A DNA stretch of 44,458 bases from Candidatus Firestoneibacteriota bacterium (GTDB taxonomy: Bacteria; Oederibacteriota; D2-FULL-39-29; JBBTED01), in contig JBBTED010000022.1 in assembly GCA_038042445.1 (NCBI GenBank), positions 1 to 44,458 of the forward strand, written 5' to 3'. The notes under the pieces are model-generated. The model had not been told where the DNA came from. It did not search any database and saw nothing but the letters and a program-made list of their open reading frames with translations. A program made the position numbers and the translations under genes. Positions 192 to 24,317 of the stretch are shown here, piece after piece; positions within the stretch are counted from its first letter, which is position 1, and every line of letters starts with the position of its first letter.

Positions 192-1451
192 ATGTTTGAT
201 GTAAAAATAACCGCGCACGATAAAAACATAATCTGTACGCTTGCAACTCGGGTTGCTGAAATTGCATCTCTTCCAGTGCAAAATGAGAATCGCAAAATGT
301 GGATTAGAATAAATCGGCTTGAGAGGGTTAGGCCTCTTATTCACATTCAGGCAATTGCTCCAGATATTTGGGAGGAACTGATTCCGAATAAACAACTACA
401 GTGCATTGATTCGTTTTGTAGGGAACAAGAGATGGAATTGCGAAAAAAGATTTATTGCTGGGAAAATTTTAGGGATGATAGAGTTGTAGATGATATTGTG
501 GTGTGTCCCATTATTAGCAATTATAATACTGGATGTGGTATTGAAATAGGCATTTTAAAACCGAAAGATAATATAGGTGCGCATGCTTTTCTGCCAGTTA
601 TTGTGGAAGAACGGGATATTGAAAAAATTCAGACGAAATCCGAGATATATGTGGATTGGAAAGAAACGAATACGTTATTTGAACTGCTCTATAATCTCTA
701 TGGTGATATCCTAAAAGTGGAGAAACGCGGGTTTGATTTCTTCAATTTTGCACCAATGGATATGTTTATTCGCTGGAGAGGTATTGAGCAGATGTTCATG
801 GATTTACTTGATAGGCCAAAATGGGTACATGAAGGACTTGAAAGAATTACAACCAGGTATTTGGGCGAATTAGAACAACTTGAGAAAATGAATGTTCTCT
901 CCTTGAGCAATGGAAACACACGCCTTGGTTCAGGCGGTTACGGATGGACTGATCAACTTCCACAAAAGGATTTTGACGGCGCACACGTCAGAATCAAGGA
1001 TATGTGGGCACGTGCTGCAACCCAAATATTTACTGAAATAATTTCACCAGAAATGCATTATGAATTTGCGATTCAGTATGAAAAGCGGTTGCTTGAAAGA
1101 TTTGGGCTGAGTTGTTACGGGTGTTGCGAGCCACTACACAAAAAGATGAGTGTTGTCAGAAAAATTCGTAACTTGCGGCGGGTATCAATGAGCCCTTGGG
1201 TAGATATTGAAGTTGCATCAAGAGAAGTCGGCAGAGATTTGGTTTATACACATAAACCAAATCCTGCAATTGTGAGCATGGAACAATGGCATCCGGATTT
1301 AGCTCGTGAAAAACTAAAAGATGCTTTTGAAAAAACACGGAACAACATTTTAGAGGTTAATCTTCAGGACATCCACACTGTTAGAAATGAGCCAAATAGA
1401 CTAACAGAATGGAGAAATATAGCTTTTGAACTCGCAGAGGAATATATTTGA
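192..1451 (+). CDS. URO-D/MtaA(CIMS)-like TIM-barrel protein, function unknown
   Basis: RGIEQMFMDLLDRP, ISPEMHYEF and YGCCEPLH motifs typical of the uroporphyrinogen decarboxylase/methylcobalamin:CoM methyltransferase superfamily; AAGGAG RBS upstream. Confidence 0.65.
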   Translation: MFDVKITAHDKNIICTLATRVAEIASLPVQNENRKMWIRINRLERVRPLIHIQAIAPDIWEELIPNKQLQCIDSFCREQEMELRKKIYCWENFRDDRVVDDIVVCPIISNYNTGCGIEIGILKPKDNIGAHAFLPVIVEERDIEKIQTKSEIYVDWKETNTLFELLYNLYGDILKVEKRGFDFFNFAPMDMFIRWRGIEQMFMDLLDRPKWVHEGLERITTRYLGELEQLEKMNVLSLSNGNTRLGSGGYGWTDQLPQKDFDGAHVRIKDMWARAATQIFTEIISPEMHYEFAIQYEKRLLERFGLSCYGCCEPLHKKMSVVRKIRNLRRVSMSPWVDIEVASREVGRDLVYTHKPNPAIVSMEQWHPDLAREKLKDAFEKTRNNILEVNLQDIHTVRNEPNRLTEWRNIAFELAEEYI

Positions 1452-6111: not shown

Positions 6112-7125
6112 GTGTCAAGACCTGATTGGGGAATTGGAATTATAGGATTGGGCGATGTTGCTAACTTACATCTGGAAGCATATCGCAAGATTGGGCTAAA
6201 TGTTATAGGCGGAGCCGAATTAGATGCGAGGAAAAGGGATATGATGAAAGAGAAGTGGAAACTGTCTGTTGTTGTAGAAGACTTTAAAGAACTGATTTCA
6301 CGGCCAGAAGTAAAGATAGTGGATGTAGCACTACCACAGATTTTTAAAATCAGGAAACCTATCATCGAGTATGCTTCTCAACAAGGAAAAGCATTATTTG
6401 TGCAAAAACCTCTATCTATTTATTTGTCCGAAGCGAAACAGCTTGTGGAGATAGCAGAATCGCATCGGGTGCCTTTTATGGTAAATCAGAACTCTGTATT
6501 TGTCCCATCTTTTATGGCAATGGATCCCTATCTTAGAGACAGCCGTTATATAGGAACGCCTTACTATTTTCAGATAGAAAACACAGGATGGTGGTTCCCG
6601 AAGGATAAATGGCTTATGAAATTGGATAGACATATTTCCTCGGGGTTAGGCATTCATTATTATGCACTTGCAATACATTGGTTCGGAGACTGGGAATCGG
6701 TTTACGCAATGGTTGGTCGGGATGCTTCTCAGACTGGACTCAAAGGCGATAGTCTCGGTATTGTATCTGTAAAGTTCAAGAATGGAGTTAAGGGTCTTAT
6801 TATCAACAACGTTTGTTATCGGGGATCACGGATTCGTAGACATGAAATTATCATACAAGGCGATGCTGGGAGCATCACAGGTGATAGCGAGGATATTTGC
6901 ATCACTACTGTGAATCCGCCATCGGAAATACGCCCGAAGATTCAAGGGAAATGGGAACCAGACGCTTTTGCAAATTCAATGTCACATTTTGTTGATTCGC
7001 TTGACAAAGGCACGTCCTTTTTGTTCTCGGGACGAGAGAATCTTAAAACCGTAGCGCTTTTGGAAGCTATCTATCTCTCTGCAGCAGAACGACGCGAAGT
7101 ACGTAGTGACGAACTTTTGCCATAA
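6112..7125 (+). CDS. Gfo/Idh/MocA family NAD(P)-dependent oxidoreductase (QKP subtype)
   Basis: GIGIIGLGDVA Rossmann motif, VQKPL, MVNQN; GTG start with GGAGG RBS. Confidence 0.85.
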   Translation: MSRPDWGIGIIGLGDVANLHLEAYRKIGLNVIGGAELDARKRDMMKEKWKLSVVVEDFKELISRPEVKIVDVALPQIFKIRKPIIEYASQQGKALFVQKPLSIYLSEAKQLVEIAESHRVPFMVNQNSVFVPSFMAMDPYLRDSRYIGTPYYFQIENTGWWFPKDKWLMKLDRHISSGLGIHYYALAIHWFGDWESVYAMVGRDASQTGLKGDSLGIVSVKFKNGVKGLIINNVCYRGSRIRRHEIIIQGDAGSITGDSEDICITTVNPPSEIRPKIQGKWEPDAFANSMSHFVDSLDKGTSFLFSGRENLKTVALLEAIYLSAAERREVRSDELLP

Positions 7126-7156
7126 GGGTGCTAAAAAAAATTTAAAAGGAGAAATG

Positions 7157-8281
7157 ATGATTGATAAGTTAAAAAGTGTAGTAAAATTACATGAATCAGA
7201 AAAAAATATTGCGACTGAAGTATCCCATGCTTTAGGAGATAAAAAAGCAAAAATTGGATTTGTGGGTGCAGGAGTTCATGCCACTAGAAATTTATATCCA
7301 ATGATTCATCTGATTCCAGAGATAGATTTGGTAGCAGTTTGTTGTAATTCAAGTGAAGAGAAAGCAAAAAGAAATGCAAGAAATTTTGGTGCATTGAGAT
7401 GGTATACGGATTTAAATAAAATGTTTTCTCAAGAAAAATTAGATGGCGCAATTGTTTGTGGTACACCTCAAATGCATTATGAAGTCGGAAAAAAATGTTT
7501 AGATGCCGGTTTGCCTATTTTTGTGGAGAAACCTTCTGCGATTTCATCTAAGGATGCATTAGATTTAGCCGAATATGCCAGTAAGAAAGGATTGTTTGGA
7601 GCAGTTGCTTATATGAAAAGAAGTGCTACTTGTTATCGTATGGCAAAAGCTATTGTTGAAAAAGAAGAATTTGGAAAAATTACTGAAATAGCAGTTCATT
7701 TTACAACTGGAAGATATCCTGTTATGTGGGGCATAAAAGAGCCAGAGCGTTCTTTTTTAATCGGTTTTGCAGTTCATATTTTTGACCTTATACGATTTTT
7801 TTGTGGAGAAGTAGCTGAAATTTATGCACGGTTAAATAATGTAAAAACAATTGATGATAGTGCAATATTTGGCTATGCAATAACTCTTGTTTTCAAAAAT
7901 GGTACCGTTGGAGTTATGAATTTGAATGCTTCAGAGGGACCTGGTTGGCAGACACATGAATATTTAACACTTGCAGGTTTTGAATGTCGATTGGAAGTAA
8001 AACATATGGTGGAACTTAATTATTATGCAAATAAAAAACAGATGCCAGAATTTAATCCTGATGGAAGAGCACAAATTTTTTCATGGAAGCCGGAATCTAC
8101 AGAATTGATAGCTTCTAAGGCAGAAGGAATGATAGGTTATAAAGGAGAACTTCAAAATTTTGCCAGTGCAATTTTAGGGAAAGAAAAACTTAGAGCAGAT
8201 TTATTTGACGGAGCAAAAGGTCTACAAATTGCTGAAGCTGTATGGGAAAGCGCAACAACCCAAAAAGTAGTTAAATTGTAA
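7157..8281 (+). CDS. Gfo/Idh/MocA family oxidoreductase
   Basis: IGFVGAG, FVEKP, HIFDL motifs; start moved to ATG 7157 (or 7154) behind AAGGAG at about 7146. Confidence 0.88.
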   Translation: MIDKLKSVVKLHESEKNIATEVSHALGDKKAKIGFVGAGVHATRNLYPMIHLIPEIDLVAVCCNSSEEKAKRNARNFGALRWYTDLNKMFSQEKLDGAIVCGTPQMHYEVGKKCLDAGLPIFVEKPSAISSKDALDLAEYASKKGLFGAVAYMKRSATCYRMAKAIVEKEEFGKITEIAVHFTTGRYPVMWGIKEPERSFLIGFAVHIFDLIRFFCGEVAEIYARLNNVKTIDDSAIFGYAITLVFKNGTVGVMNLNASEGPGWQTHEYLTLAGFECRLEVKHMVELNYYANKKQMPEFNPDGRAQIFSWKPESTELIASKAEGMIGYKGELQNFASAILGKEKLRADLFDGAKGLQIAEAVWESATTQKVVKL

Positions 8282-9836: not shown

Positions 9837-10082
9837 GGTACTGTAAAAAGTTTTATGAGAGAAAATTCATAAATACTGATAAATAAAGGTTAAATCTCTT
9901 TCATAAGGGGGGAGGGAACTTAAAACAGGGGATTAAAAGCAAATTAATACAAACGCATTAAGTTTTTTGTAGTTGCCGATTTATCGGCTTTTAAATTATG
10001 CTCATAAATGAGCGACTACAAATTTTAAAATAGATGTAATTAAAGAAATAAAGAAATATTGTTAAAAACTTTTCACAGTACC
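9837..10082. mobile_element. 246-bp MITE with 18-bp TIRs and 8-bp target-site duplication
   Basis: GGTACTGTAAAAAGTTTT ... AAAACTTTTCACAGTACC (17/18 match); GTTCGGTA directly repeated at 9829-9836 and 10083-10090; no credible internal ORF. Confidence 0.9.
9968..10020. repeat. GTAG-type REP doublet, family A, inside the MITE
   Basis: TGTAGTTGCCGATTTATCGGC identical to 1457-1477; inverted arm GCTCATAAATGAGCGACTACA at 10000-10020. Confidence 0.85.
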
Positions 10083-10103: not shown

Positions 10104-11027
10104 ATGATGAAGAAAAAAATTCCTGTAATTCTTGATACAGATATTGGATATGATTGTGATGACACATGGGCATTGGTTATGCTATTGAAATCACCAGAAC
10201 TTGATGTGAAGTTAATTACTACTGAAACTGGTAATACGACATATTGTGCAAAAATAGTTGCCAAAATACTTGAAATTGCAAAACGCACTGATATTCCTAT
10301 TGGAATAGGAATTGATTTTACGCCTAGAAAAGAATACGAACGGCAGGCACCTTGGGTTGAAGGGTATGATTTTTCTAATTATTCTGGGATTGTGCATAAA
10401 AATGGTGTAAATGCTATTGTAGATACAATTATGAAATCACAGGAACCAATTACTTTGATTTGTATCGGTCCTGTTCCTAATATTAATCGTGCTCTTGAAA
10501 TTGAACCAAAAATTTCAAATAAAACAAGGTTTGTGGGTATGTTTGGTAGCATTCGACATGCATATGGATATAAGGATAGTAAAACAATAGTTCCTGAATA
10601 TAATGTCAAAGAATATATAAAAGAATGTCAAAAAGTTTTTAATGCTTTATGGTTAGATATGGTGATAACTCCACTTGATACTTGTGGGCTTGTAAGGCTT
10701 ACAGGAAAAAAATATAAAGCAGTACATAATTGCAATGAACCACTTATTAAAGCATTACTTGAAAACTATAGGATTTGGGCAAAAAACAAAAAAGAAGAAA
10801 AATTTAATCCTGAAATTCACAGTTCAATCCTTTTTGATACAGTAGCGATATATCTTGCTTTTAGTGATGAACTTCTTGCAATGGAAAAAATTGGTATTCG
10901 TATAACTGATGATGGATATACAATTCCGGATAAAAATGCAAGACCAATAAATTGTGCGATGAAATGGAAAAATCTTCCTGCTTTTGAAGATTTTTTGTCT
11001 AAAAGGTTGGTAGAATCTGCGAAATAA
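10104..11027 (+). CDS. Nucleoside hydrolase (inosine/uridine-preferring NH fold)
   Basis: ILDTDIGYDCDD (DxDxxxDD Ca-binding motif), IGPVPN, PEYNV, TPLD, LFDT. Confidence 0.88.
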   Translation: MMKKKIPVILDTDIGYDCDDTWALVMLLKSPELDVKLITTETGNTTYCAKIVAKILEIAKRTDIPIGIGIDFTPRKEYERQAPWVEGYDFSNYSGIVHKNGVNAIVDTIMKSQEPITLICIGPVPNINRALEIEPKISNKTRFVGMFGSIRHAYGYKDSKTIVPEYNVKEYIKECQKVFNALWLDMVITPLDTCGLVRLTGKKYKAVHNCNEPLIKALLENYRIWAKNKKEEKFNPEIHSSILFDTVAIYLAFSDELLAMEKIGIRITDDGYTIPDKNARPINCAMKWKNLPAFEDFLSKRLVESAK

Positions 11028-11065: not shown

Positions 11066-12436
11066 ATGAATTCAATACAAGGTACTGGCAAGTTATTAAA
11101 AAAGATGGATATGCATCCTTATATTAATCAAAGACCTTTAAAATTAAAGGCAGTTGAAAACCGCATTTTATATAATGTAAATAAGGGAAGGAAGCATAGT
11201 GGAGAAGTTGTTGAGACGACTTATTATCTTACTGCAAATTCCAACGAAGGTAAATTTGGAGGTATTGAGGAAGCTATTAACGCTCTTTTAATTCATGCTA
11301 CAGTTGAGCTTTGGCCAGGGACTGGAAAAGATCCAAAAAAATATAGACAACATTTATCATACCTAAAGGATATTAAATTTTTAGGGGTTAATCCAAAAGA
11401 AAAACAAGAAGCAGCTTTGATTACTATATCTACACCTTTAGAATTTTTTGATAAAGAAACAAATGGTGTTTCATTAGCCCAGTTAAGAATGGCTACTGCA
11501 AGTGAGCCTTTTAATGCATTTAGCAATTTTACTGCAAGAATTGTAGATTATCAATTCCCCGAAAAATTCAAAAAAGGATTTTTAGGGCAAATCTGGCCGC
11601 ATAAAAGAATTAGAGAATATTTAAATATAAGCGAAAAAGAACCAATAATAGGTACTATTGTTAAACCTAAGTGGCTGCCAAAAGAATTGTTTGCCAAAAA
11701 AGTCCTTGAAGCTGCTAATGCGGGAGCACTCTTTGTAAAATCTGATGAAAATCTACATCTTACAAAAAAAGAATTAGCTGAATATGTTGCTTTAACAGTT
11801 AAACTATTAGAAAAAAATGGATTTGACCTTTCTTTAAATAGTAAATCATCTAAAAAGAAATTTATTTTTGCACCTCATATCACAACAAACTGGTTTTCAA
11901 TTTTAGAATATGCAAAAATTGCTGTTGATTGTGGAGCAAATGCTTTAATGTTCTCAACACATCTTGCTGGTGATTTTGAAGTCATCAGAAAAATATATGA
12001 GATGGGGGGGAAATATAAAATTCCAATTTATGCTCATACTGCAGGAATGAATAGAACTACAGGAGACCCTAATTTCTCTTTTGGAGAAGATGCAAAAACG
12101 GTATATCTATTAGCATCTCTTTCAGGGTCGGCTTTTATGCAATTACCAGCTATACAGGGATATATTAAGCCAACAGATATTGAAAAACTCTCAATAATAA
12201 ATAGACTTGAAAAAGATGGACTTGTTGGCAATAACGGTATGACATTAGTAATTGCTGGTGGATTAAGCCCTGAAAATATAGGGCATAACATAAAAATTTT
12301 TGGAGTTGAAGGCAAAATGTTTTTAGCAGGAACTTCTGTTTATCATCATCCTGGTGGTGTTCAAGCAGGAATTTTAGCTCTTAAACGCGCTGCTATTAAA
12401 ACAATTACACAAGTTTGTAAAAGCTTTTTACAATAA
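11066..12436 (+). CDS. RuBisCO-like protein (form IV RLP), divergent
   Basis: PIIGTIVKPK, FVKSDEN (carbamylated Lys/Mg motif), IYAH, IAGGL, HHPGGVQAG match the RuBisCO large-subunit barrel; residues needed for carboxylation are substituted; AAGGAGG RBS. Confidence 0.85.
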   Translation: MNSIQGTGKLLKKMDMHPYINQRPLKLKAVENRILYNVNKGRKHSGEVVETTYYLTANSNEGKFGGIEEAINALLIHATVELWPGTGKDPKKYRQHLSYLKDIKFLGVNPKEKQEAALITISTPLEFFDKETNGVSLAQLRMATASEPFNAFSNFTARIVDYQFPEKFKKGFLGQIWPHKRIREYLNISEKEPIIGTIVKPKWLPKELFAKKVLEAANAGALFVKSDENLHLTKKELAEYVALTVKLLEKNGFDLSLNSKSSKKKFIFAPHITTNWFSILEYAKIAVDCGANALMFSTHLAGDFEVIRKIYEMGGKYKIPIYAHTAGMNRTTGDPNFSFGEDAKTVYLLASLSGSAFMQLPAIQGYIKPTDIEKLSIINRLEKDGLVGNNGMTLVIAGGLSPENIGHNIKIFGVEGKMFLAGTSVYHHPGGVQAGILALKRAAIKTITQVCKSFLQ

Positions 12437-12460: not shown

Positions 12461-13570
12461 ATGAATTTTAAGGAAATGAATTTAAGAATATTTGAAGGTA
12501 AAAAAATACCGCATGTTTTATTTCAACCAAGAATAGAACCATGGTATCATTGGCATAAGCATTTTAATATGCTTCCTGAGAAATATAAAAATATGTCAAT
12601 TTTGGAGTTATTCGATGATCTTAAAATTTCTATGCGCTATTTTGATTATTATACAAATATACCTCATCCAATAGAGACTGTATATACAGACAAAATTAAA
12701 ATTAAGGAAAATTTTGAAAAAGAATATGGGAAACGTATTATTGAAACTCCATATGGTGATTTGATAGAAGTCTTAAAAAAAACTCCGGATGATACATGGC
12801 GGACAATAGATTTTCCAGTTAAGACAAAAGATGATTTAAAAAAGTTGAGATACCTTTATGAAAACACAATATATCATTTTTCAATAGAAAAATTTGAAAC
12901 AGGTGTTAAATTTATTGGAGAAAGAGGAATGCCTCAATTCTGGTTACAAAAAAGTCCATATCAGGCATTTAGACGTTGGATGCATTTAGAGGATTTTATT
13001 TATGCATTATGTGATAATCCAGTTAGTATAGAAGAGGTTATAGAAGCTATGGATACTTCTTATAACAAATTCTATGATGAAATTATTTCTTATGGCAAAG
13101 TAAAAATAGTTAATTTTGGAGAGAACATTCATGCTCACACGTTATCTCCAAAATATTTTGAAAAATATTTAATTCCGTACTATATGAAAAGGTCAAATCA
13201 ATTGCGAAAAAGTGGAATTTACACACATATACATATAGATGGATATTTTAAGCCATTACTTAAATTTTTAAAAGATTTACCATTTGATGGGCTTGAAGCA
13301 TTAACTCCTTTGCCACAAGGTGATGTGACTATTGAAGAAATCAAAGAATATATAGGTGATAAAATTCTTATAGATGGAATTCCTGCAGTATTATTTTTGC
13401 CGACTTATTCAAGGGATGAATTGCAAAAATGTGTAGAAAAATTAGTAAAATTATTTCATCCCAAATTGATTTTAGGAATATCAGATGAAATTCCAGAAAA
13501 TGCAGATGAAGAAGGGATAGAAAGAGTAAGATGGGTATCCCAATATTGTCAAAAATATTTAACAGTATAA
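12461..13570 (+). CDS. URO-D/MtaA-like protein, function unknown
   Basis: IETPYGDL, FPVKT, LSPKYFEKYLIPYY, HIHIDG, EALTPLPQGD, ILGISDE typical of URO-D family hypothetical proteins. Confidence 0.7.
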   Translation: MNFKEMNLRIFEGKKIPHVLFQPRIEPWYHWHKHFNMLPEKYKNMSILELFDDLKISMRYFDYYTNIPHPIETVYTDKIKIKENFEKEYGKRIIETPYGDLIEVLKKTPDDTWRTIDFPVKTKDDLKKLRYLYENTIYHFSIEKFETGVKFIGERGMPQFWLQKSPYQAFRRWMHLEDFIYALCDNPVSIEEVIEAMDTSYNKFYDEIISYGKVKIVNFGENIHAHTLSPKYFEKYLIPYYMKRSNQLRKSGIYTHIHIDGYFKPLLKFLKDLPFDGLEALTPLPQGDVTIEEIKEYIGDKILIDGIPAVLFLPTYSRDELQKCVEKLVKLFHPKLILGISDEIPENADEEGIERVRWVSQYCQKYLTV

Positions 13571-13606: not shown

Positions 13607-16102
13607 ATGCAAGCAAAGAAAGATTTAAATGGAATGTGGCAGTTTAGTTTAGCAGAAAAAAATAACTGGAATATTGCAAAGGTGCCGGGTTGTGTTCAAA
13701 TGGATTTAATGGCACTTGAAAAATTGCCCGATCCTTTTTATAGGATGAATGAAAGACAATTTATTGATATAGAACCATGTGAATGGGATTACAAAAAAGA
13801 ATTTGTAGTTGCCGATTTATCGGCAAAAAAACAGCTAAATAATGCACAGATAAATTTAGTCTTTGAAGGGCTTGATACTTTTTGCAATATATACTTGAAT
13901 GATAAATATATTGGCAGAGCAGAAAATATGTTTATTCCACATATATTTGATATAACTGATATTCTAAAAGAAGGTAATAATGTGTTATTTGTACATTTTG
14001 ATTCACCAATTAAAACAATAAAAGTAATGGAAGGCAATTCACCTTATGTAATGAAAAGTGTGGTAGAAACTGCAAGACCATATATACGTAAAGCACAGTA
14101 TTCTTATGGCTGGGATTGGGGCCCAAGAATTGCACAAACAGGTATATGGAGAAATGTTTATCTTGAATTTATTGATATTGCTAAACTTGAAAATCCATTT
14201 TTTTACACAGAGAAAATATCAGACAATACTGCTTATGTCCATATTAGCTGTGAAGTAACAGGAAATACAGATGAAGATTTTAAAATAGAAACAATAATTA
14301 ATTATAAAGGAAAAAAAATTGTATCCTTCAAAAATGATGTTAAAAATATTAAAGGCAAATTTGGAATTAATGAAAAAGTAGAAATTAAAAATCCAAAACT
14401 TTGGTATCCCAATAATATGGGCGAGCAAAATCTTTATGAACTAAAATTTCTTTTATATTGCAAAGGGGAAAAAATAGATACACTAAAAATTGCTTCAGGA
14501 ATCAGAATAGTAAAATTATTACAGGAAGAAGATAAAGATGGTAAAAGTTTTATATTTGAGATAAATGGAATAAAAACATTTTGTAAAGGAGCGAATTGGA
14601 TTCCAGCAGATAATTTTATTCCAAGGATAACAAAAAAGGATTATTATGACTTAATTAAAATGGCAAAAGATGCAAATATGAATATGCTAAGAGTTTGGGG
14701 CGGTGGAATTTATGAAGATTCAGCATTTTATAGTGCTTGTGATGAAATGGGCATTATGGTTTGGCAGGATTTTATGTATGCTTGTGCTCAATACCCAGAC
14801 CAATTTGACTGGTTTCAGAAATTAGCTAAAGAAGAAGCAGTTTGTATTGTAAAAAAGTTGCGTAACCATCCTTCAATTGTTATATGGTGTGGAAATAATG
14901 AAAATAATTGGGGAAATATTATTTGGTGGGGATGTGGTGATCCAAAATTTTTTGGCAATTATATTTACAAAGAAATATTGCCAGAAGTATGTAGGGAAAA
15001 TGATTTTTCCAGGCCTTATTGGGTTTCAAGCCCTTATGGTGGAGAAGATCCAAATAGCGAAAAAGAGGGAGATAGACATTCATACGAAGTATGGGGTAAA
15101 TGGAAGGATTATGAAGTCTATACAAAAGATGAAGGCAGATTTATAAGTGAATTTGCTTTTCAGTCAATGCCAAATTGGAAAACCGTTATTTCTTTTACAG
15201 AAAGAAAAGATAGACGTATACTTAGCCAGGTTATGCTTTCTCACAATAAAAAACCAGAAGGAGTGGAAAGGACAATAAAATATTTAATTGCTAGAGTTGG
15301 TTTGCCAAAGGATTTTAAAAGTTTTGTTTATCTTACACAATTTAACCAGGCAGAGGCGATTAAAACAGGTGTGGAGCATTGGAGAAATAATAAATTTCAC
15401 ACAAGCGGAACATTGTATTGGCAATTTAATGACTGTTGGCCAGGTGCAAGCTGGTCTTGTATTGATTATTACAAAAGAAAAAAAGCACTGTGGTATTATT
15501 CAAAGAAATTCTTTGATAATATTCTTCCATATTTAAAGTTTATTGATAATGCAGTTTCATTGACAATAATAAATGATTTTAATGAAGCTAAAAAAGCAAA
15601 AGTTTTTCTAAAAGTGTTTGAATTTAACGGCAGAAAATTATTTGAGAAAAAATTTGACATAAATCTGTTGGCTAATGATGTTAGTAAAGTGTATAATATC
15701 AAGATAGCAGAGTTTATTAAAGAAGAAGAGAAATGTTTAATGGTTAAAGATATAAAAGAAGAGAGCAGTATTCCTGAGTATGTAAATAAAAAATTACTGA
15801 ATTCAGTAATTTTTGTAGATGTTATTGTTGGCGATAAAGTTTATGGTAATTATCTTGTTTTTGACAGATTTCGAAATCTGGATATTCCAAAAGCAAAAAT
15901 AAATCTTATACAAAAGGGAAATATTTTAAATGTTATAGCTGATAAGCCTGTATTTGGATTGTTTATTGAATCAGAAAATGACGTTGATATTTCTGATAAT
16001 TGCCTTATTTTGGAACCAGTCAGAAACTACGAAATAAAATTTTCTGATAATCCCGGCAAAATTGAATTATTTAATCTGGAAAATATGATAACAGAGATTT
16101 GA
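13607..16102 (+). CDS. GH2 beta-mannosidase-like glycoside hydrolase
   Basis: FEGLDT, RKAQYSYGWDWGP, KGANWIP, NMLRVWGGG, WCGNNE, FISEF, YWQFNDCWP. Confidence 0.92.
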   Translation: MQAKKDLNGMWQFSLAEKNNWNIAKVPGCVQMDLMALEKLPDPFYRMNERQFIDIEPCEWDYKKEFVVADLSAKKQLNNAQINLVFEGLDTFCNIYLNDKYIGRAENMFIPHIFDITDILKEGNNVLFVHFDSPIKTIKVMEGNSPYVMKSVVETARPYIRKAQYSYGWDWGPRIAQTGIWRNVYLEFIDIAKLENPFFYTEKISDNTAYVHISCEVTGNTDEDFKIETIINYKGKKIVSFKNDVKNIKGKFGINEKVEIKNPKLWYPNNMGEQNLYELKFLLYCKGEKIDTLKIASGIRIVKLLQEEDKDGKSFIFEINGIKTFCKGANWIPADNFIPRITKKDYYDLIKMAKDANMNMLRVWGGGIYEDSAFYSACDEMGIMVWQDFMYACAQYPDQFDWFQKLAKEEAVCIVKKLRNHPSIVIWCGNNENNWGNIIWWGCGDPKFFGNYIYKEILPEVCRENDFSRPYWVSSPYGGEDPNSEKEGDRHSYEVWGKWKDYEVYTKDEGRFISEFAFQSMPNWKTVISFTERKDRRILSQVMLSHNKKPEGVERTIKYLIARVGLPKDFKSFVYLTQFNQAEAIKTGVEHWRNNKFHTSGTLYWQFNDCWPGASWSCIDYYKRKKALWYYSKKFFDNILPYLKFIDNAVSLTIINDFNEAKKAKVFLKVFEFNGRKLFEKKFDINLLANDVSKVYNIKIAEFIKEEEKCLMVKDIKEESSIPEYVNKKLLNSVIFVDVIVGDKVYGNYLVFDRFRNLDIPKAKINLIQKGNILNVIADKPVFGLFIESENDVDISDNCLILEPVRNYEIKFSDNPGKIELFNLENMITEI
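13804..13836 (+). repeat. GTAG REP family A copy embedded in frame in the GH2 gene
   Basis: 21/21 identity to 1457-1477 plus the A-tract-CAGCT spacer; read as VVADLSAKKQL. Confidence 0.85.
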
Positions 16103-17587: not shown

Positions 17588-18274
17588 ATGGAAAAGATAG
17601 GTAAATTAATTGCAGTGGTAGATGATGAACAAGATATACTTGAACTTGTATCATTGCATCTCAATAAAGCAGGATATAAGACTCAGGAATTTTCCCAAGC
17701 AAAAGATTTTCTGAAGTTTATGGAAAAACAACATCCACAACTAATAATACTTGATATTATGTTGCCTGATACTGATGGTTATGAAATATGCAAATATTTA
17801 AAATCACAGGATAAATTTTCGTCTATTCCTGTAATAATGCTTACTGCAAAAGCTGAAGAAATAGATAAGATTTTAGGGCTGGAATTAGGTGCTGATGATT
17901 ATGTAACAAAACCATTTTCTCCAAGGGAGCTTGTGGCAAGAGTAAAAGCAGTTTTAAGAAGACAGGAAACAAAAGATGAAACAAAAACCAGAGAGATAGG
18001 CGATATACTGTTAATTGATTTAGACAAATACGAAGTATTTGTTGAAGGTAAAAAAATAGATTTAACTATAACCGAATTCAGAATTTTGGAAATTTTTTCA
18101 TCAAGGAAAGGATTGGTGTACACTAGAGAAAAAATATTAGATAATCTCTGGGGACAGGAAAAAGCAATTTTGGACAGAACAATAGACGTTCATATAAAAA
18201 ACTTGCGTGAAAAATTAGGCAAAGCAGGTAAATTCATAAAAAATATAAGAGGTATTGGCTATAAAATAGAGTAA
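17588..18274 (+). CDS. phoB: OmpR-family response regulator PhoB/PhoP
   Basis: VVDDE, LDIMLP, GADDYVTKPFSPREL, RTIDVHIKNLREKL; upstream of phoR and pst. Confidence 0.85.
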   Translation: MEKIGKLIAVVDDEQDILELVSLHLNKAGYKTQEFSQAKDFLKFMEKQHPQLIILDIMLPDTDGYEICKYLKSQDKFSSIPVIMLTAKAEEIDKILGLELGADDYVTKPFSPRELVARVKAVLRRQETKDETKTREIGDILLIDLDKYEVFVEGKKIDLTITEFRILEIFSSRKGLVYTREKILDNLWGQEKAILDRTIDVHIKNLREKLGKAGKFIKNIRGIGYKIE

Positions 18275-20014
18275 ATGAAAATTTCTATATTTTCTAAAAT
18301 ATTTGGTGGATATCTTTTTATAATTATTGCTTTGTCATCTTTAATTATCTTATTTTCATTTAGTACTCTAAAGAATCACGACATAAATTCATCGACTGAT
18401 AACCTTAAAAATCTCGGGACAACTTTAAGCCTACAGGTAGCTCCTCTTTTAGAAAAAAATGAATATCAAAAATTAGATGCACTTGTTAAGAAATTAGGAA
18501 ATGAAATAAAAACAAGAATAACAATAATAAATTCTGATGGTGTGGTGTTAGCTGATTCAGAACATTCCCCAAAATCAATGGAAAATCATAAGAACAGGTC
18601 TGAAATAATAGATGCTATTGAAAATGGATTTGGTAAGTCAATACGTTATAGTAATACATTAAAAAAAGATATGCTATACGTTGCTTTGCCTGTATTTATA
18701 AAAGACAAAAAAGAGTTATTGTGTGTAATACGGGTAAGCTTATTCTTAAGTGATATAGATATGTTATTTGCTGAATTAAAAACTAAGATTTTACATATAT
18801 CTCTGGTTATAATGATATTTTCAATACTGGGTGCGATGTTTTTTTCCAGGAGTTTATCAAGACCAATTCAGATGTTAAAAGTAGTATCAAAAAAAATAGC
18901 AAGTGGAAATTTTAATGCAAAAGTTATTCTGAAAAGTCACGATGAATTAAAAGATTTAGCTGAAAGTTTTAATAATATGGCTGAGCAAATGAAAGAAATA
19001 TTTGAAAAGCTTTCTCAACAGAAAGAAGAACTCAATAATATTATTTCTTCAATTCAGGAAGGACTACTTTTAATAGATAAGAAAGGTATAGTTTTATTAG
19101 CTAATGATAGTTTCAGAAAGATATATGAAACTCAATATGTAGAAAATAAATACTACTGGGAAGTTTTAATGGTGCCGAAATTTAATGATTTAATAAAAAG
19201 GGTAATTAGTTCAAAAACGAACCTCATAGAAGAAATAACACTGAACAGCCGAATATTTTTATGCAGTGTAACTTTTTTGCATAAAAAAGAAGAGCTTGTT
19301 GTTTTGTTTCATGACATAACTGATTTAAAGGATATAGAAAAAATGAAAAGGGATTTTGTGACAAATGTATCACATGAATTACGCACTCCTCTTACCGCAA
19401 TCAAAGGTTTTGCTGAAACTCTTGAAGATGAAGTAGACCAAAAGAGTAGGCACTATGTAGATATAATAAAAGTTCATACAGATAGATTGATAACTATAGT
19501 TCAGGATTTACTTATATTATCAGAACTTGAAGAAAAAGAAGCCAAGTTAAAATTGGAAAACTTAAATATAAAAGAACTACTTAATAATGTTGCAAAATTA
19601 TTTGCGAAAAAAATAATGGAAAAGAAATTGGAGCTGAAAGTTGAAATTAGTGAGAACATTTCATTTTTGAAAGCAGATTCTTTTAAATTGGAACAGATGT
19701 TTATCAATTTGATTGATAATGCTGTGAAATATACTGAAAAAGGAGAAATTAAAATATCGGTAAAACAAAAAGATGAAACTGTTATTTTTGAAATAAAAGA
19801 TACTGGTATAGGAATACCCAAAGAATATCTAAACCGTATTTTTGAAAGGTTTTTTGTTGTAGATAAATCCCGTTCCAGAAAGCTTGGTGGAACTGGTTTA
19901 GGTCTTTCTATTGTAAAACACATTGTGCAGATACATAATGGAAAAATAGATGTTGAAAGTACTCCAGAAATAGGCTCAAAGTTTACTGTTATATTACCCA
20001 TAAATCCTCTTTAG
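18275..20014 (+). CDS. phoR: Sensor histidine kinase PhoR (HAMP-PAS-HisKA-HATPase)
   Basis: DFVTNVSHELRTPLT, NLIDNAVKY, DTGIGIP, GGTGLGL; MENHKNRSEI sensor segment; pst context. Confidence 0.88.
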   Translation: MKISIFSKIFGGYLFIIIALSSLIILFSFSTLKNHDINSSTDNLKNLGTTLSLQVAPLLEKNEYQKLDALVKKLGNEIKTRITIINSDGVVLADSEHSPKSMENHKNRSEIIDAIENGFGKSIRYSNTLKKDMLYVALPVFIKDKKELLCVIRVSLFLSDIDMLFAELKTKILHISLVIMIFSILGAMFFSRSLSRPIQMLKVVSKKIASGNFNAKVILKSHDELKDLAESFNNMAEQMKEIFEKLSQQKEELNNIISSIQEGLLLIDKKGIVLLANDSFRKIYETQYVENKYYWEVLMVPKFNDLIKRVISSKTNLIEEITLNSRIFLCSVTFLHKKEELVVLFHDITDLKDIEKMKRDFVTNVSHELRTPLTAIKGFAETLEDEVDQKSRHYVDIIKVHTDRLITIVQDLLILSELEEKEAKLKLENLNIKELLNNVAKLFAKKIMEKKLELKVEISENISFLKADSFKLEQMFINLIDNAVKYTEKGEIKISVKQKDETVIFEIKDTGIGIPKEYLNRIFERFFVVDKSRSRKLGGTGLGLSIVKHIVQIHNGKIDVESTPEIGSKFTVILPINPL

Positions 20015-20021
20015 ATTATTC

Positions 20022-20075
20022 TTAACACAAAATTAATAATTTCTTTATACGCATTTAACTCGGATATTATATAAT
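20022..20075 (+). promoter_or_regulatory. Pho box array with -10 element
   Basis: TTAACA (20022), TTAATA (20033), TTTATA (20044), TTAACT (20055) at exact 11-bp period, followed by TATAAT at 20070. Confidence 0.7.
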
Positions 20076-20150
20076 TATTTAAGAAAAATAAAATTCATGT
20101 CGTTTTCGTTTGTCTATGGAAACGATCTGTCAAAAAAGGAGGAATAAATA

Positions 20151-21299
20151 ATGGTAAAGAAAAAGAAAATGTTTTTTGTGGCGGTGATATGTAGTGTAGT
20201 TTGTATTTTGAATACGGGTGTTTCTTTGGCAAGTGAAACTGATGTATTACTTAATAAACTTGTTGAGAAGGGACAGCTCACTAGTTTTGAGTCCCAGGAA
20301 GTAAGAAATGAAATTGATGTAGTAAGACAAAAAGAAGAACAGAAGAAAAAAGAGGAAGAAAGTCAAAAAAAGGAAAAAGACAAATTGCAAATGAAAATTT
20401 CTGGATATACTCAGTTGATTTATGTAGTAGATCCAACACTGGGAGGAAAAGAACCTTTAACAGTAAAACGATCACGAATTTCGTTCAGTAAAATGTTAAA
20501 TGATTGGGCGTCTTTTAAGATTCAACCAGATTTTGCTGGTGTTGCTTCTGCTACAGGAGGCGGAAATGTGGCATTTCGTGAAGCATTTATTGAATTGATT
20601 GCCAATAGTGATTGTGCCAGATTCCGTTTTGGACAGTATCATCAACCATTTGGTTTTGAAAACAATTTTTCTTCTTCAAAGAAGAAAGTAGCGGATACTC
20701 CACAGTATATGAGCAAGATTTTAACAACTGATTACGATTACGGTATACAATGGTGGGGAAATTTGCCAGGGGATAAATCTGTAAGTTGGCGAATTGCAGT
20801 AATGAATGGATCTGGTTCTACAACTGAAGATAATACAAAAAAAGATGTTGCTGGAAGGCTAGTTATTGCAGTTCTTAATGATATAGAATTTGGTGCATCA
20901 GCTTATAGTAGGTATGCGGGTGCAACTGAGAAAATTGCAATGCATTATGGTGGATACTTCAAATTAGAAACAGCTGGACTTTTGCCATGTCCATTATTTA
21001 TAACCGCTGAGTATGTTACAGGTAAAGATTCTGCTGGAGCAAAAGATGTTACAGATATAATTACAACTGTAGAAGTTAAGCCATTTGTCAATTTCGGGAT
21101 ATTGACCGAGATTGCGCCTGTAGTAAGACATGAGTTATTTAAAGATGGAAGCGGCCAGCAATTAGATTATGTAACTGTAGGTTTAAATTTTTACATTGAT
21201 AAATCAGTGCGAGTGTTAACAGATTATGTAGTCAAAAACGAAAAGGAAAAATCCAAAGATGATAATCGTTTCAATATAATGTTACAAGTAAGTTATTAA
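20151..21299 (+). CDS. Phosphate-selective outer-membrane porin (OprO/OprP-like)
   Basis: Signal peptide; N-terminal DVLLNKLVEKG helix; ISGYTQ, RFGQYHQPFG; alternating beta-strands; C-terminal aromatic (LQVSY); first gene of the pst operon. Confidence 0.75.
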   Translation: MVKKKKMFFVAVICSVVCILNTGVSLASETDVLLNKLVEKGQLTSFESQEVRNEIDVVRQKEEQKKKEEESQKKEKDKLQMKISGYTQLIYVVDPTLGGKEPLTVKRSRISFSKMLNDWASFKIQPDFAGVASATGGGNVAFREAFIELIANSDCARFRFGQYHQPFGFENNFSSSKKKVADTPQYMSKILTTDYDYGIQWWGNLPGDKSVSWRIAVMNGSGSTTEDNTKKDVAGRLVIAVLNDIEFGASAYSRYAGATEKIAMHYGGYFKLETAGLLPCPLFITAEYVTGKDSAGAKDVTDIITTVEVKPFVNFGILTEIAPVVRHELFKDGSGQQLDYVTVGLNFYIDKSVRVLTDYVVKNEKEKSKDDNRFNIMLQVSY

Positions 21300-21310
21300 A
21301 GGAGGGATAA

Positions 21311-22345
21311 ATGAAAAAATATAAATTAAAAACAATTTTAATGTCATTAATGTTTGTTATTTCATTTGCAAACATCAGTTTGGCTGGAAAATTATTATTG
21401 ATAAACGGAGCAGGAGCAACTTTTCCATATCCGTTATATTCAAAATGGTTCTATGAATATGCAAAAATAGATACAAGTGTAAATTTTAATTATCAGTCAA
21501 TAGGTTCTGGAGGAGGCATAAGACAAATTACTGTTCAAACAGTCGATTTTGGCGCAACTGATGGACCCATGACTGATCAACAACTAAAAGAAGCACCTGG
21601 TGCAATATTGCATATTCCTATGGTTGCAGGCGCGGTTGTTGTTACATACAATATTGCAGGAATAGACGAAAAACTCAAATTCAGTCCTGATGTTATAACA
21701 GATATTTTTATGGGAAACATCACAAAATGGAATGACAAAAGAATTGCACAAGACAATCCGGGTGTTCGTTTGCCAGACAATAAAATAATTGTTGTGCACC
21801 GTTCTGATGGAAGTGGAACGACCTATATTTTTGTTGATTATCTTTGTGAAGTATCAAGTGAGTGGAAAAATAAAGTTGGTAAAGGAACTTCAGTTAGTTG
21901 GCCTGTTGGCTTAGGTGGAAAAGGAAATGAGGGTGTAGCAGGACTTGTCAAACAGACACCTTATTCAATAGGCTATGTGGAACTTGCTTATGCAATTAAG
22001 AGCAATTTAGAATATGGTGCTATTAAGAACAAAACAGGTAAATTCATTGTGCCAAGTTTACAAAGTATAACAGCGTCAATATCTTCAAAAGCAAACAGTA
22101 TGCCTTCGGATTTCAGGGTGTCACTTGTAAATTCTGGTGGTATTGATACATATCCGATATCCGGATTTACATGGATTTTAGTTTATAAAAATCAGACCGA
22201 TAAAATTAAAGGTGAAAAACTTGTAAGATTTTTAAATTGGGCAATAACTGATGGGCAAAAATATGCTGCTGATTTATTCTATGCTGGTTTGCCATTAAAT
22301 ATAGTAACAAAGATTCAGCAGAAACTTAAGGAAATAACTTATTAA
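21311..22345 (+). CDS. pstS: Phosphate ABC transporter substrate-binding protein
   Basis: GAGATFPYP, YQSIGSGGG, HRSDGSGTT, GGKGNEGV, YPISGFTW. Confidence 0.97.
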   Translation: MKKYKLKTILMSLMFVISFANISLAGKLLLINGAGATFPYPLYSKWFYEYAKIDTSVNFNYQSIGSGGGIRQITVQTVDFGATDGPMTDQQLKEAPGAILHIPMVAGAVVVTYNIAGIDEKLKFSPDVITDIFMGNITKWNDKRIAQDNPGVRLPDNKIIVVHRSDGSGTTYIFVDYLCEVSSEWKNKVGKGTSVSWPVGLGGKGNEGVAGLVKQTPYSIGYVELAYAIKSNLEYGAIKNKTGKFIVPSLQSITASISSKANSMPSDFRVSLVNSGGIDTYPISGFTWILVYKNQTDKIKGEKLVRFLNWAITDGQKYAADLFYAGLPLNIVTKIQQKLKEITY

Positions 22346-22379
22346 AGGGTAATGGGGTTAGTTAAGGACGGAGATGTCA

Positions 22380-22506: not shown

Positions 22507-22546
22507 TCAATGACACTTCTGTTCCTAACTGACCATTATATTAAAA

Positions 22547-24306: not shown

Positions 24307-24317
24307 ATGAGGAATAT

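Follow-up and report, generated by a model that had tools for sequence, protein, structure and literature searches.

A putative deep-branching subfamily of RuBisCO-like proteins with an altered active site, encoded in sugar-related loci of uncultured anaerobes

Sequence comparison supports the assignment of the gene at positions 11066..12436 (+ strand) to a previously undescribed, deep-branching subfamily of RuBisCO-like proteins (RLPs), separate and uncharacterised. The gene lies on a Candidatus Firestoneibacteriota contig (JBBTED010000022.1), all 44,458 nucleotides of which were analyzed and are called the window here. With moderate confidence, the protein is read as an isomerase or epimerase that enolises a keto-sugar phosphate supplied by a kinase and does not carboxylate it. 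To our knowledge, every functionally solved RLP (the MtnW enolase, the MTRu-1-P isomerase, and OiaX/OiaT) revealed a new pathway and another redirection of RuBisCO enolisation. The new clade is widespread in uncultured glycan-degrading anaerobes and its branch ranks with the longest of the RuBisCO-family sequences sampled, yet it keeps K175-P-K177, unlike the characterised RLP references, and therefore bears on the divergence of carboxylase and non-carboxylase lineages. Its tight coupling to PfkB-type kinases offers a directly testable route to the substrate.

The open reading frame encodes 456 amino acids from an ATG start, is free of internal stops, and is preceded by a Shine-Dalgarno sequence GGAGG about 13 nt 5' of the start codon. 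The protein matched PF00016 just above the gathering score (32.9 versus 30.1 bits) and did not match the N-domain model PF02788. In its AF2 model (pLDDT 88.5, pTM 0.90), the predicted fold is that of the RuBisCO large subunit, with an N-terminal alpha/beta domain and a C-terminal (beta/alpha)8 barrel. Foldseek with this model returned RuBisCO/RLP folds (TMq 0.67-0.74, prob 1.00, 410-482 aligned columns), namely form III RuBisCO and all solved RLP types, at E values of 1e-24 to 1e-21 and 16-22% identity; the ESM Atlas gave the RuBisCO_large family and nothing beyond it. The intact frame, the predicted fold, and the low scores against curated models agree with the original description of the protein as a highly divergent RLP.

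The N-terminal region that precedes the E60 equivalent (residues 1-76, 11066..11293, + strand) was delimited by alignment lengths and the AF2 model, in which its blocks have a pLDDT of 81-96 and helices span residues 6-10 and 28-39. It carries H17-P18-Y19 (11114-11122, + strand) and N39/R42 (11180-11191, + strand), all invariant in 35/35 family members. The 76 residues before the E60 column compare with 24-41 in MtnW, OiaX, the second RLP of the same genome, and form III-type rows, and with 62 in form I. The predicted extension of about 45 aa thus holds against the RLP and form III-type rows (35-52 aa), but shrinks to just 14 aa against form I.

In two quick IQ-TREE trees of 115 and 61 rows, which agree and carry SH-aLRT support alone, the family came out as monophyletic with SH-aLRT 100; its stem measures 1.1-1.3 substitutions/site, and it lies apart from the clades of MtnW, OiaX, and true RuBisCO. 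The OiaX reference grouped elsewhere, in a clade of 6 rows (SH-aLRT 100) or 4 rows (SH-aLRT 95), across a branch with support 99. Scores against curated models were 29-75 bits where cut-offs are 409-700, for the RuBisCO NCBIfam models (TIGR03326, 74.5 versus 497; NF003252, 66.7 versus 438; NF010002, 28.8 versus 489), the MtnW equivalogs (NF007095, 65.9 versus 409; TIGR03332, 53.9 versus 513.6), and the OiaX equivalog (37.3 versus 700). The proposal of a new RLP subfamily, for which HMM and phylogenetic placement had been suggested as a check, is therefore upheld by both, the clade being separate from the named references. Searched against PDB, the family profile best matched form II/III and III RuBisCOs (9dyp, 99.5 bits; 8vgs, 84; 6hun, 83) and gave 75 bits to IV-Photo of C. 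tepidum (1tel/1ykw), 81 to IV-NonPhoto of B. fungorum (3nwr), and 59.7 to IV-DeepYkr of R. palustris RLP2 (2qyg). Judged by score, the family would not be close to these three types, to which it scores no better than to true RuBisCOs.

The family comprises more than 100 sequences, all from MAGs and metagenomes, with source names including Omnitrophota, Aerophobetes, WS2, Kiritimatiellae, Lentisphaerae, Spirochaetia, Clostridia, and Bathyarchaeia. For IspG of the window's genome, the closest named relatives had only 64-66% identity and were scattered over different lineages. Its members are publicly labelled 'ribulose-bisphosphate carboxylase large chain' or 'DK-MTP-1-P enolase'; neither label is backed by the present evidence, and MAG studies that rely on them may credit CO2 fixation or methionine salvage to hosts in error. 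In the open full-text literature, neither this clade nor an association of any RLP with PfkB, uronate-isomerase-like, or URO-D-fold genes was found described. Jaffe et al. 2019 (PMC6389311) mention a 'form IV-like' RuBisCO clade located on phage genomes. Identity with that clade was rejected after a scan of viral contigs for relatives, in which none of 20 pattern matches was confirmed.

Active-site residues were compared in a MAFFT L-INS-i alignment of 25 sequences, comprising the window protein, 14 family members, the genome's second RLP, the named references (MtnW, form I RbcL, OiaX, and the B. anthropi RLP), and five form III-type RuBisCO-like rows, three of which exceed the NCBIfam large-subunit cut-off. 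Positions are given in spinach numbering, anchored by motifs in the form I reference. Retained were K175 (K200), K177 (K202), K201 (K225), D203 (D227), E204 (E228), and H294 (H324), and substituted were E60 (H77), N123 (E147), R295 (T325), H298 (M328), H327 (Q359), K334 (Y366), S379 (A397), and G404 (T423). This independent alignment reproduced all six retentions and all seven substitutions that had been claimed, with N123->E uncertain by one residue, the equivalent being E147 in two alignments and P148 in one with more outgroups. Aligning the family profile to form III RuBisCO 6hun gave the same C-domain and N123 assignments. Of the 15 family rows, only P0121 departed from this pattern, at W66, K334, and G404. 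Because 76 columns are invariant across 35 members at identities down to 41%, the residue pattern is not due to chance. The catalytic residues that are kept occur in all 15 aligned family rows and, like the derived H77, E147, T325, M328, Q359, and A397, are invariant in 35/35; the equivalents of G380, G381, and G403, the P1 backbone site, are likewise invariant in the family.

Along the + strand, the alignments place the N-domain motif HATVELW at 11294..11314, equivalent to E60..W66 of RuBisCO (E60->H77, T65->L82, W66 kept as W83), and the N123-equivalent position within S146-E147-P148 at 11501..11509, where three alignments were compared and both E147 and P148 are invariant. K200-P-K202 (11663..11671) retains K175-P-K177 in full, K177 being missing from the MtnW, OiaX, B. 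anthropi RLP, and second-RLP rows. Alignment and invariance mark K225-S-D227-E228-N229 (11738..11752) as the predicted carbamylated-lysine/Mg2+ site (K201, D203, E204). H324-T-A-G-M328 (12035..12049) keeps H294 and shows R295->T and H298->M, with the distal phosphate site lost, and the loop-6 region FMQ...GYIK (12134..12169) carries H327->Q359 and K334->Y366, with K/R kept two residues on (K368). At A397-G398-G399 (12254..12262), S379 is replaced by Ala and G380 and G381 of the P1 phosphate backbone site are kept, as alignment and invariance indicate; at G422-T423 (12329..12334), G403 is kept and G404 is Thr.

On these alignments, the residues predicted to serve carbamylation, Mg2+ binding, and enolisation are kept, and those predicted for carboxylation and the distal phosphate (P2: R295, H298, H327) are lost. 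The view that both phosphate sites are altered is accordingly right for P2 and not supported for the P1 backbone. Loss of the carboxylation residues is incompatible with RuBP carboxylation; RuBisCO K334 mutants, the K329 mutants of R. rubrum, reportedly retain enolisation and lose carboxylation. That the RuBP carboxylation residues are absent, as first proposed, is borne out by the alignment, their requirement being general background, and the window protein is predicted to be unable to fix CO2.

Among characterised systems, the MtnW/YkrW 2,3-diketo-5-methylthiopentyl-1-phosphate enolase (PDB 2oek, 2zvi, 3fk4, 4nas), an RLP that enolises a monophosphate without carboxylating it, shares the fold and gave the best single-sequence PDB matches (E ~1e-10). 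Both keep K175, K201, D203, E204, and H294 and have lost R295, H327, and K334. MtnW differs in having lost K177, kept here, and in having Lys at the N123 position (K99 in P. megaterium), the catalytic base, where the new family has E147/P148; it also forms a separate clade, and the new family has an N-terminus 50 aa longer and no methionine-salvage neighbours. The MtnW reference gene is flanked by an aminotransferase and an mtnX-like phosphatase. OiaX and OiaT of D-apiose catabolism (3-oxo-isoapionate-4-phosphate decarboxylase and transcarboxylase/hydrolase, respectively) likewise occur in sugar or sugar-acid operons beside a dedicated kinase, which is a four-carbon acid sugar kinase for OiaX and a PfkB kinase in the new family. 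The OiaX reference shares H327->Q, but keeps R295 and K334, lacks K177, and belongs to a different clade. Form III RuBisCO of the archaeal pentose-bisphosphate pathway (PDB 2d69/2cwx, 3a12, 6hun), whose pathway context includes PfkB-family kinases, gave the best structural and profile matches and has the KPK motif in common, whereas the new family, at 74 bits versus 497, has replaced every residue for carboxylation and for the distal phosphate of RuBP. The 'DeepYkr' RLPs of R. rubrum and R. palustris (5-methylthioribulose-1-phosphate 1,3-isomerase; PDB 2qyg, 3qfw) enolise and then reprotonate elsewhere, as proposed for the new family; they were compared by score, 2qyg giving the 59.7 bits noted above and 3qfw not being among the matches. 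The nearest tree neighbours (SH-aLRT 96-99) were the uncharacterised groups P0165/P0166/P0173/P0194/P0198 and P0127-P0138, for which no solved or characterised close relative was found. They share H327->Q/R, S379->A in part, G404->S/T, and the loss of R295, but score at most 112 bits to the window protein, have K177 in P0194 only, and carry 24-65 residues before the E60 column against 76. As two long stems are joined, this sister relation may reflect long-branch attraction.

In the window, the RLP gene belongs to an apparent four-gene unit on the + strand. Upstream, after a 38-bp gap, lies a gene of the inosine-uridine nucleoside hydrolase fold (10104..11027, 307 aa; PF01156, 105 bits), RihC-like at 84 bits versus a cut-off of 382. 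Downstream, after 24 bp, follows a URO-D/MtaA-fold gene (12461..13570, 369 aa; PF01208, 32.6 bits), whose product reached 27.6 bits as a methylcobalamin:CoM methyltransferase, far under the cut-off, and had no match among PDB sequences at E<=0.01; the gene shares blast cluster c32 with genes of the related RLP loci L027 and L051. A GH2 glycosidase with a mannosidase Ig-like domain, identified by domain match, comes last after 36 bp (13607..16102, 831 aa). In the 305-bp gap upstream of the unit, a scan found a weak terminator-like hairpin (9975..9988, + strand), not significant alone, with 3 such sites observed versus 2.8 expected. Two Gfo/Idh/MocA oxidoreductase genes lie further upstream (6112..8281, + strand), and this family recurs in 19/106 RLP loci. 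No mtn (methionine-salvage) genes occur within the window, as had been stated. Against the isomerase/epimerase reading, no kinase adjoins the RLP gene in the window, and the adjacency to a nucleoside-hydrolase-fold gene is unique to it, that gene remaining a singleton when neighbours from 117 sources were clustered.

Neighbourhoods were collected with a crude six-frame ORF caller from 106 loci with an RLP ORF, 100 of them with at least one neighbour; 11 of the 117 sources were left out, a longer antisense ORF having displaced the RLP frame. Within 3 genes of the RLP in the 100 loci, a PfkB/FGGY kinase occurred in 21 and any sugar-phosphate enzyme in 70, in line with the predicted sugar metabolism context. 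The counts for subclade A, that of the window (40 loci), were PfkB 15, URO-D-fold 18, and any sugar-phosphate enzyme 28, and for subclade B (60 loci) ManA-like isomerase 20, MtlD-like dehydrogenase 14, class II aldolase 8, E1/TPP (transketolase/E1) 8, SIS 7, and any sugar-phosphate enzyme 42. PfkB lies directly downstream of the RLP in 16 loci, and the two genes overlap by 4 bp in the three loci inspected (L058, L064, L074). These overlaps, the kinase and sugar-phosphate enzyme counts, and the invariant P1 glycines speak against the earlier suggestion of a possibly non-phosphorylated substrate. The ManA-like representative (143 versus 116) and the aldolase representative, as a ketose-bisphosphate aldolase (227 versus 215.6), exceeded their cut-offs, and the ManA-like, MtlD-like, and class II aldolase partners, which are among the commonest, point to neutral hexose or polyol phosphates, whereas the uronate-isomerase-like partner described below would suit the sugar acid first proposed. 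No partner occurs in more than roughly one quarter of loci and operon types are mixed, so that different subclades may use different substrates. An inositol (iol) pathway was rejected for the neighbours (IolC 109-118 versus 300, IolG 68-100 versus 355, IolE 49 versus 290). URO-D/MtaA-fold genes were the commonest neighbour (27/106 loci); together with the corrinoid neighbours they hint at methyl chemistry, which the isomerase/epimerase model leaves unexplained. P0269 is a natural fusion of a uronate-isomerase-like amidohydrolase and an RLP, its amidohydrolase domain being 52% identical to the product of the gene immediately upstream of the RLP in L027; such a fusion would fit a carboxylate in place of the second phosphate, or even a non-phosphorylated uronate.

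In the proposed mechanism, carbamylated K225 together with D227 and E228 would hold Mg2+, as across the superfamily, and the metal would bind the carbonyl and adjacent hydroxyl of the keto-sugar. The alpha-proton would be taken by a base, either the carbamate, K200, or the family-specific E147/H77 of the N-domain, giving a metal-stabilised enediolate with the assistance of H324. CO2 would not be added, because Tyr replaces K334 and Thr, Met, and Gln replace R295, H298, and H327; the enediolate would instead be reprotonated at another carbon or face, with isomerisation or epimerisation as the outcome. One phosphate would sit at the G398-G399/G422 backbone, which the family keeps. The likeliest substrate is the monophosphate of a keto-sugar (or keto-uronate), presumably formed by the co-transcribed PfkB-type kinase, and the setting would be anaerobic glycan, polyol, or hexose catabolic operons.

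Other readings of the same data appear less probable. An OiaX-like decarboxylase of a beta-keto-acid phosphate, or another enzyme of a sugar-acid route in which the amidohydrolase turns a uronate into a keto-uronate, PfkB phosphorylates the latter, and the RLP decarboxylates or rearranges the product, is unlikely. Such a route would accommodate the P0269 fusion, whose partner family matches PDB 4i6v (E 1e-34) and uronate isomerase BH0493 (E 2.7e-15), and the Gln that OiaX also has at H327. The amidohydrolase is present in 10/106 loci, but within 3 genes of the RLP in only 4/60 of subclade B and 0/40 of subclade A. Fructuronate/tagaturonate reductases and the mannitol-DH family fall within one broad family, and mannitol-DH-family neighbours would suit the route, yet their representative scored 247 bits as mannitol-1-phosphate 5-dehydrogenase against 33 as fructuronate reductase. 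Also opposed are the OiaX model score, the position outside the OiaX clade, the loss of the R295 and K334 that OiaX keeps, and the absence of a four-carbon acid sugar kinase from the annotated neighbour clusters. It is quite unlikely that the RLP acts on methylated or methylthio sugars with MtaA/MtsA-fold methyltransferases and a corrinoid protein, as an anaerobic analogue of MTA-salvage RLPs or a step in O-methyl sugar catabolism. This reading is favoured by DK-MTP-1-P and MTRu-1-P, methylthio sugars on which known RLPs act, by the frequency of URO-D/MtaA-fold neighbours (18/40 loci in subclade A), one of which lies downstream in the window, by the 10 paralogues of that gene in the window genome, and by the upstream nucleoside-hydrolase-fold gene, which could free a ribose derivative. 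The URO-D-fold neighbours, however, score only 28-52 bits for the MtaA subfamily versus cut-offs of 235-244, the MtnW models give 54-66 bits versus 409-514, the MtnW Lys at N123 is E/P here, and no MtnA-, MtnK-, or MtnB-like cluster was seen among the annotated neighbours. A corrinoid protein exceeds the 'methyltransferase cognate corrinoid protein' cut-off (217.7 versus 215.3) in L074 and L051, but these are the only two of 106 loci with one; the window genome has a corrinoid protein 66% identical to that of L074, its gene lying between rpoC and SurA-like genes.

Decay or inactivity of the window copy, in a family that as a whole may function, is very unlikely. Its C-terminus is about 25 aa short, lacking a helix that the 34 other aligned members have, with no continuation in any other frame; PfkB homologues in the genome are at most 26% identical to the RLP-linked kinase, so that none appears orthologous, and the upstream neighbour is unique. 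Against decay, all 76 family-invariant residues are present, the terminal branch is ordinary (0.27, no longer than those of neighbours), the frame has no internal stops, a good Shine-Dalgarno sequence, and tight spacing in the four-gene unit, and the genome is only 90% complete. That the protein is a true RuBP carboxylase of high divergence, serving for instance a nucleoside pathway of the pentose-bisphosphate kind, is extremely improbable. The form II/III and III RuBisCOs as best PDB profile matches, the KPK motif, the nucleoside-hydrolase-fold gene upstream, and the weak likeness of PfkB neighbours to ribose-1-phosphate kinases (86-96 bits versus cut-offs of 330-500) would fit it; K334, R295, H298, H327, E60, N123, and S379, however, are all replaced, scores lie far under RuBisCO cut-offs, and neither ribose-1,5-bisphosphate isomerase nor AMP phosphorylase was found among the annotated neighbours.

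Beyond the preferred isomerase/epimerase reading, a reaction new to the RuBisCO superfamily, in an undescribed anaerobic pathway for modified sugars, can be put forward as a speculative possibility. PfkB would make a keto-sugar or keto-uronate 1-phosphate with a neutral or carboxylate distal group, and the RLP would enolise it, with epimerisation, beta-elimination, or a 1,3-shift as the result. The same substrate, for which O-methylated sugars or uronic acids of plant, algal, or microbial glycans are candidates, would also be processed by MtaA-fold methyltransferases that depend on corrinoid and, in part of the lineages, by the fused uronate-isomerase-like enzyme.

Two further long frames were inspected among the related loci. 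An apparent 809-aa fusion in L097 was rejected as an ORF run-through artefact, its N-terminal part being of low complexity and without PMI similarity. In L026, a candidate single ORF joins PMI and RLP on one contig.

The 456-aa product of 11066..12436 (+ strand; ATG start, GGAGG ribosome-binding site ~13 nt 5' of it) barely exceeded the cut-off of Pfam RuBisCO_large (32.9 versus 30.1 bits) and scored 29 to 75 bits against all six NCBIfam models for RuBisCO and RuBisCO-like proteins (RLPs), with cut-offs of 409 to 700. Its top PDB sequence matches were MtnW-type RLPs (E ~1e-10). The AlphaFold2 model, built from a 35-sequence family alignment, was confident (pLDDT 88.5, pTM 0.90) and resembled form III RuBisCOs and all of the solved RLP types to about the same degree (E 1e-24 to 1e-21, TMq 0.67 to 0.74, 16 to 22% identity). 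On this modeled structure, the RuBisCO/RLP fold is certain, and the matches favor none of the known subgroups.

The original prediction of a highly divergent RLP with an unusual active site was confirmed by the low model scores and by an independent alignment with named references, which reproduced all 13 residue claims. The alignment comprised the window protein, 14 members of its deep-branching clade (the family), the second RLP of the window's genome, four references taken from annotated plasmids (MtnW of P. megaterium, the form I large subunit of S. meliloti, OiaX of R. leguminosarum, and an RLP of B. anthropi), and five RuBisCO-like proteins of the form III type, of which three exceed the NCBIfam large-subunit cut-off. 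Spinach numbering was anchored on form I motifs. Retained were K175 (K200 in the window protein), K177 (K202), K201 (K225), D203 (D227), E204 (E228), and H294 (H324), and likewise G380, G381, and G403. Changed were E60 to H77, N123 to E147, R295 to T325, H298 to M328, H327 to Q359, K334 to Y366, S379 to A397, and G404 to T423. Alignment of the family profile to form III RuBisCO 6hun gave the same N123 and C-domain assignments; in a second alignment with more outgroups the N123 counterpart was P148, not E147.

RuBisCO and characterized RLPs enolize a 2-keto sugar phosphate with the carbamate/Mg2+ site, K175, and H294. CO2 addition in RuBisCO requires K334, the proximal phosphate of RuBP is bound by backbone amides of G381, G403, and G404 together with K334 and T65, and the distal phosphate by R295, H298, and H327. 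The family keeps the enolization residue set, G398-G399, and G422, and is without K334 and the entire distal phosphate site, which upholds the earlier statement that RuBP is not carboxylated. This pattern predicts an enolizing, non-carboxylating enzyme whose substrate would carry a single phosphate and end distally in some other group, not a substrate lacking phosphate altogether. Family-specific invariants (H77, E147, N229, H271, N329, E373-K374, H428, the HPY arm, and a K/R located two positions beyond Y366) are, from the alignment, candidates for the altered specificity.

The previously noted N-terminal extension of about 45 aa holds in comparison with RLPs and form III-type proteins (24 to 41 residues before the E60 column versus 76), but shrinks to 14 aa against form I (62 residues). 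Its H17-P18-Y19, N39, and R42 were invariant in 35 of 35 family members and it was modeled at pLDDT 81 to 96, which argues that it is not junk. The window copy retains every one of the 76 family-invariant residues, and its branch length is ordinary. A C-terminal helix of ~25 aa, present in the 34 other aligned members, is absent from it, and no continuation of its C terminus was found in another frame.

A word-indexed search returned 231 relatives. Those listed formed two groups with 60 to 71% and 45 to 51% identity, all from metagenomes or metagenome-assembled genomes (MAGs), the named sources being WS2, Aerophobetes, Omnitrophica, Bathyarchaeia, Lentisphaerae, Kiritimatiellae, Verrucomicrobia, Spirochaetia, and Clostridiales. 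Exhaustive phmmer search of 1.84 billion cluster representatives gave three full-length 50%-identity clusters (591, 386, and 319 bits), followed by full-length proteins at 112 bits or less. Family representatives reached 45 to 89 bits on every NCBIfam RuBisCO/RLP model, as did a second divergent set (P0165, P0166, P0173, and P0194), while most other scanned proteins scored ~100 to 470 bits on their best models.

In two IQ-TREE "quick" trees (LG+C20 PMSF, 115 and 61 rows, SH-aLRT support), the family was monophyletic (support 100, stem 1.12 to 1.29 substitutions/site). Its sister (96 to 97) was a second long-stemmed uncharacterized group containing P0165, and both were sister (99) to a third, P0127-P0138. 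MtnW, OiaX, the B. anthropi RLP, the second RLP of the window's genome, and all true RuBisCOs lay on the opposite side, so the proposal of a new RLP subfamily stands. Joined long stems carry a long-branch risk; shared derived states (H327 to Q/R, G404 to S/T, and loss of R295) argue for real kinship of the family with its sister groups. A close solved relative was likewise not found for the nearest sister groups. The family is distinct from the "form IV-like" phage clade that Jaffe et al. described, as a scan of viral contigs gave no relatives of it, and no account of the family was found in the open literature searched. The equally divergent P0165, P0166, P0173, P0194, and P0198 (467 to 476 aa, best PDB match 70 bits), apparently uncharacterized too, keep K175, K201, D203, E204, and H294, with R295 changed to N, H298 to I, H327 to Q, S379 to A, and G404 to S.

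In the window, the RLP gene follows a nucleoside-hydrolase-fold gene (10104..11027, +) by 38 bp and precedes a URO-D/MtaA-fold gene (12461..13570, +) by 24 bp, with a GH2 glycosidase bearing a mannosidase Ig-like domain (13607..16102, +) 36 bp further on. A 305-bp gap, containing a terminator-like hairpin in a statistically uninformative scan, parts these four genes from same-strand upstream genes for GH116, an alkaline-phosphatase-superfamily protein, two Gfo/Idh/MocA oxidoreductases, and a sulfatase.

Neighborhoods were compared across 117 sources, namely, the window, 36 genome loci from family-alignment scans (all MAGs), and metagenome loci for the best 80 of 102 relatives. Neighbor ORFs were called by a simple six-frame script and clustered by blastp, and cluster representatives were annotated. 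The RLP ORF was kept in 106 sources, 100 of them with at least one neighbor, and dropped in 11, where a longer antisense ORF displaced it. Of the 40 loci with neighbors in subclade A, the window's own group (at least 57% identity to the window RLP), 18 had a URO-D/MtaA-fold gene within three genes of the RLP, 15 had a PfkB kinase, and 28 had at least one sugar-phosphate enzyme. L047, L057-L060, L064, and L074 share the order RLP-PfkB-URO-D; in L058, L064, and L074 these genes abut directly or overlap by 4 to 8 bp, the RLP/PfkB overlap being 4 bp in each of them. The trio often lies inside a larger operon (PDH-E1-like alpha/beta, split transketolase, GatZ-like gene, two Zn-ADHs, sorbitol-6-P-DH-like SDR, class II aldolase, FucI-like isomerase, and a bona fide xylulokinase at 502 bits versus a cut-off of 380). 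In subclade B (41 to 53% identity, 60 loci with neighbors), 20 loci had a class I ManA-like isomerase in the same interval (143 bits, cut-off 116) and 14 had an MtlD-like dehydrogenase (order MDH-PMI-RLP). Class II ketose-bisphosphate aldolase and E1/TPP genes were each present there in 8 loci, GmhA-like SIS isomerase genes in 7, and PfkB in 6, and 42 loci had at least one sugar-phosphate enzyme. These loci also carry GH38, GH4, and GH30 glycosidases, sugar ABC transporters, and LacI/RpiR regulators.

One 783-aa ORF (L026:28-2376, +) joins a PMI type I catalytic domain (residues 2 to 90) to an RLP domain (496 to 755); on this one contig it may be either a fusion or a frameshift/assembly artifact. 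In subclade A loci L008, L062, and L063, genes for a TPR/Yip1 protein, a DUF5696 protein, a second Yip1 protein, an HlyD-like adaptor, a MacB-periplasmic-domain protein, and an ABC permease follow the RLP, while the upstream side holds genes for a divergent AKR-ferredoxin and for a PRK/uridine-kinase-family protein. The unrelated RLP of B. anthropi plasmid pOANT04 (L042) lies directly 3' of a transketolase C-terminal-domain gene, which parallels the transketolase/E1 association of the new family.

A new subfamily in sugar metabolism thus survives from the original interpretation, and its non-phosphorylated substrate does not, as the retained G398-G399 and G422 and the coupled kinase point to a phosphorylated one. 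The evidence favors a substrate made by that kinase, and enolization by the RLP would drive isomerization or epimerization, a reaction we consider moderately probable. No close ortholog of the RLP-linked PfkB was found in the window's genome (2.8 Mb, 90% complete; best 26% identical). The main rivals of the isomerase/epimerase reading are decarboxylation and methylated-sugar metabolism. A decarboxylase acting on a keto-uronate phosphate is unlikely, and a sugar-acid substrate is possible rather than favored; the best support for the sugar-acid idea is a natural fusion, P0269 (896 aa; two member sequences, four contigs), found in a search for longer forms. Its residues 1 to 424 are a uronate-isomerase-like amidohydrolase and its C-terminal part is an RLP of the new family. 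The former is 52% identical (E 1e-164) to an unannotated gene of ~440 aa that immediately precedes the RLP in L027 and L028. This partner family, with an invariant D-x-H-x-H start, occurred in 10 of 106 RLP loci; its PDB matches were 4i6v "Amidohydrolase 2" at E 1e-34 and, at E 2.7e-15, the uronate isomerase BH0493; the window's genome has one uronate-isomerase-like gene, away from the RLP.

A role in methylated-sugar metabolism appears quite improbable. The URO-D-fold partners matched the MtaA/CmuA methyltransferase subfamily weakly (28 to 52 bits), and the window's genome has 10 URO-D-fold paralogs (e.g., C137:1191-2078, C48:51608-52510, and C70:19510-20283), none of them exceeding 30% identity to the window's copy; one in-frame TGA lies within the C48 match. 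At L074:10352-13365 and L051:8364-10119, the URO-D/MtaA-fold genes next to RLP-PfkB come with a gene for a B12-binding corrinoid protein. This protein has PF02310+PF02607 and scored 217.7 bits on the NCBIfam model "methyltransferase cognate corrinoid protein" (cut-off 215.3), which suggests corrinoid-dependent methyl transfer within a sugar operon. One corrinoid protein of the window's genome (L130:8596-9225), 66% identical to that of L074, is sited between rpoC and SurA-like genes. Nearby on the same contig, C15, rpoB was found as two ORFs of 902 and 309 aa ~170 bp apart (L130:604-4412) with overlapping Rpb2 domain-6 matches; the arrangement could stem from a frameshift or an assembly error, or the gene could be naturally split.

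The second RLP of the window's genome (C11, L001:1456-2763, - strand) is ordinary (435 aa, 166 bits to PF00016), keeps E60, K175, K201, D203, E204, and H294, has K177 changed to C and R295 to P, and grouped in the clade that includes MtnW; a 458-aa ORF adjoins it. At 192-1451 (+), the window encodes a protein of 419 aa that matched neither Pfam nor NCBIfam; a homolog (blast cluster c124) closes RLP locus L027. The genes at 17588-25871 (+) form a complete block for phosphate sensing and uptake (PhoB/PhoR-like two-component system, porin O/P, pstSCAB, and phoU), followed by dxr, rseP, and ispG, and the phosphate-selective porin of the block implies an outer membrane.
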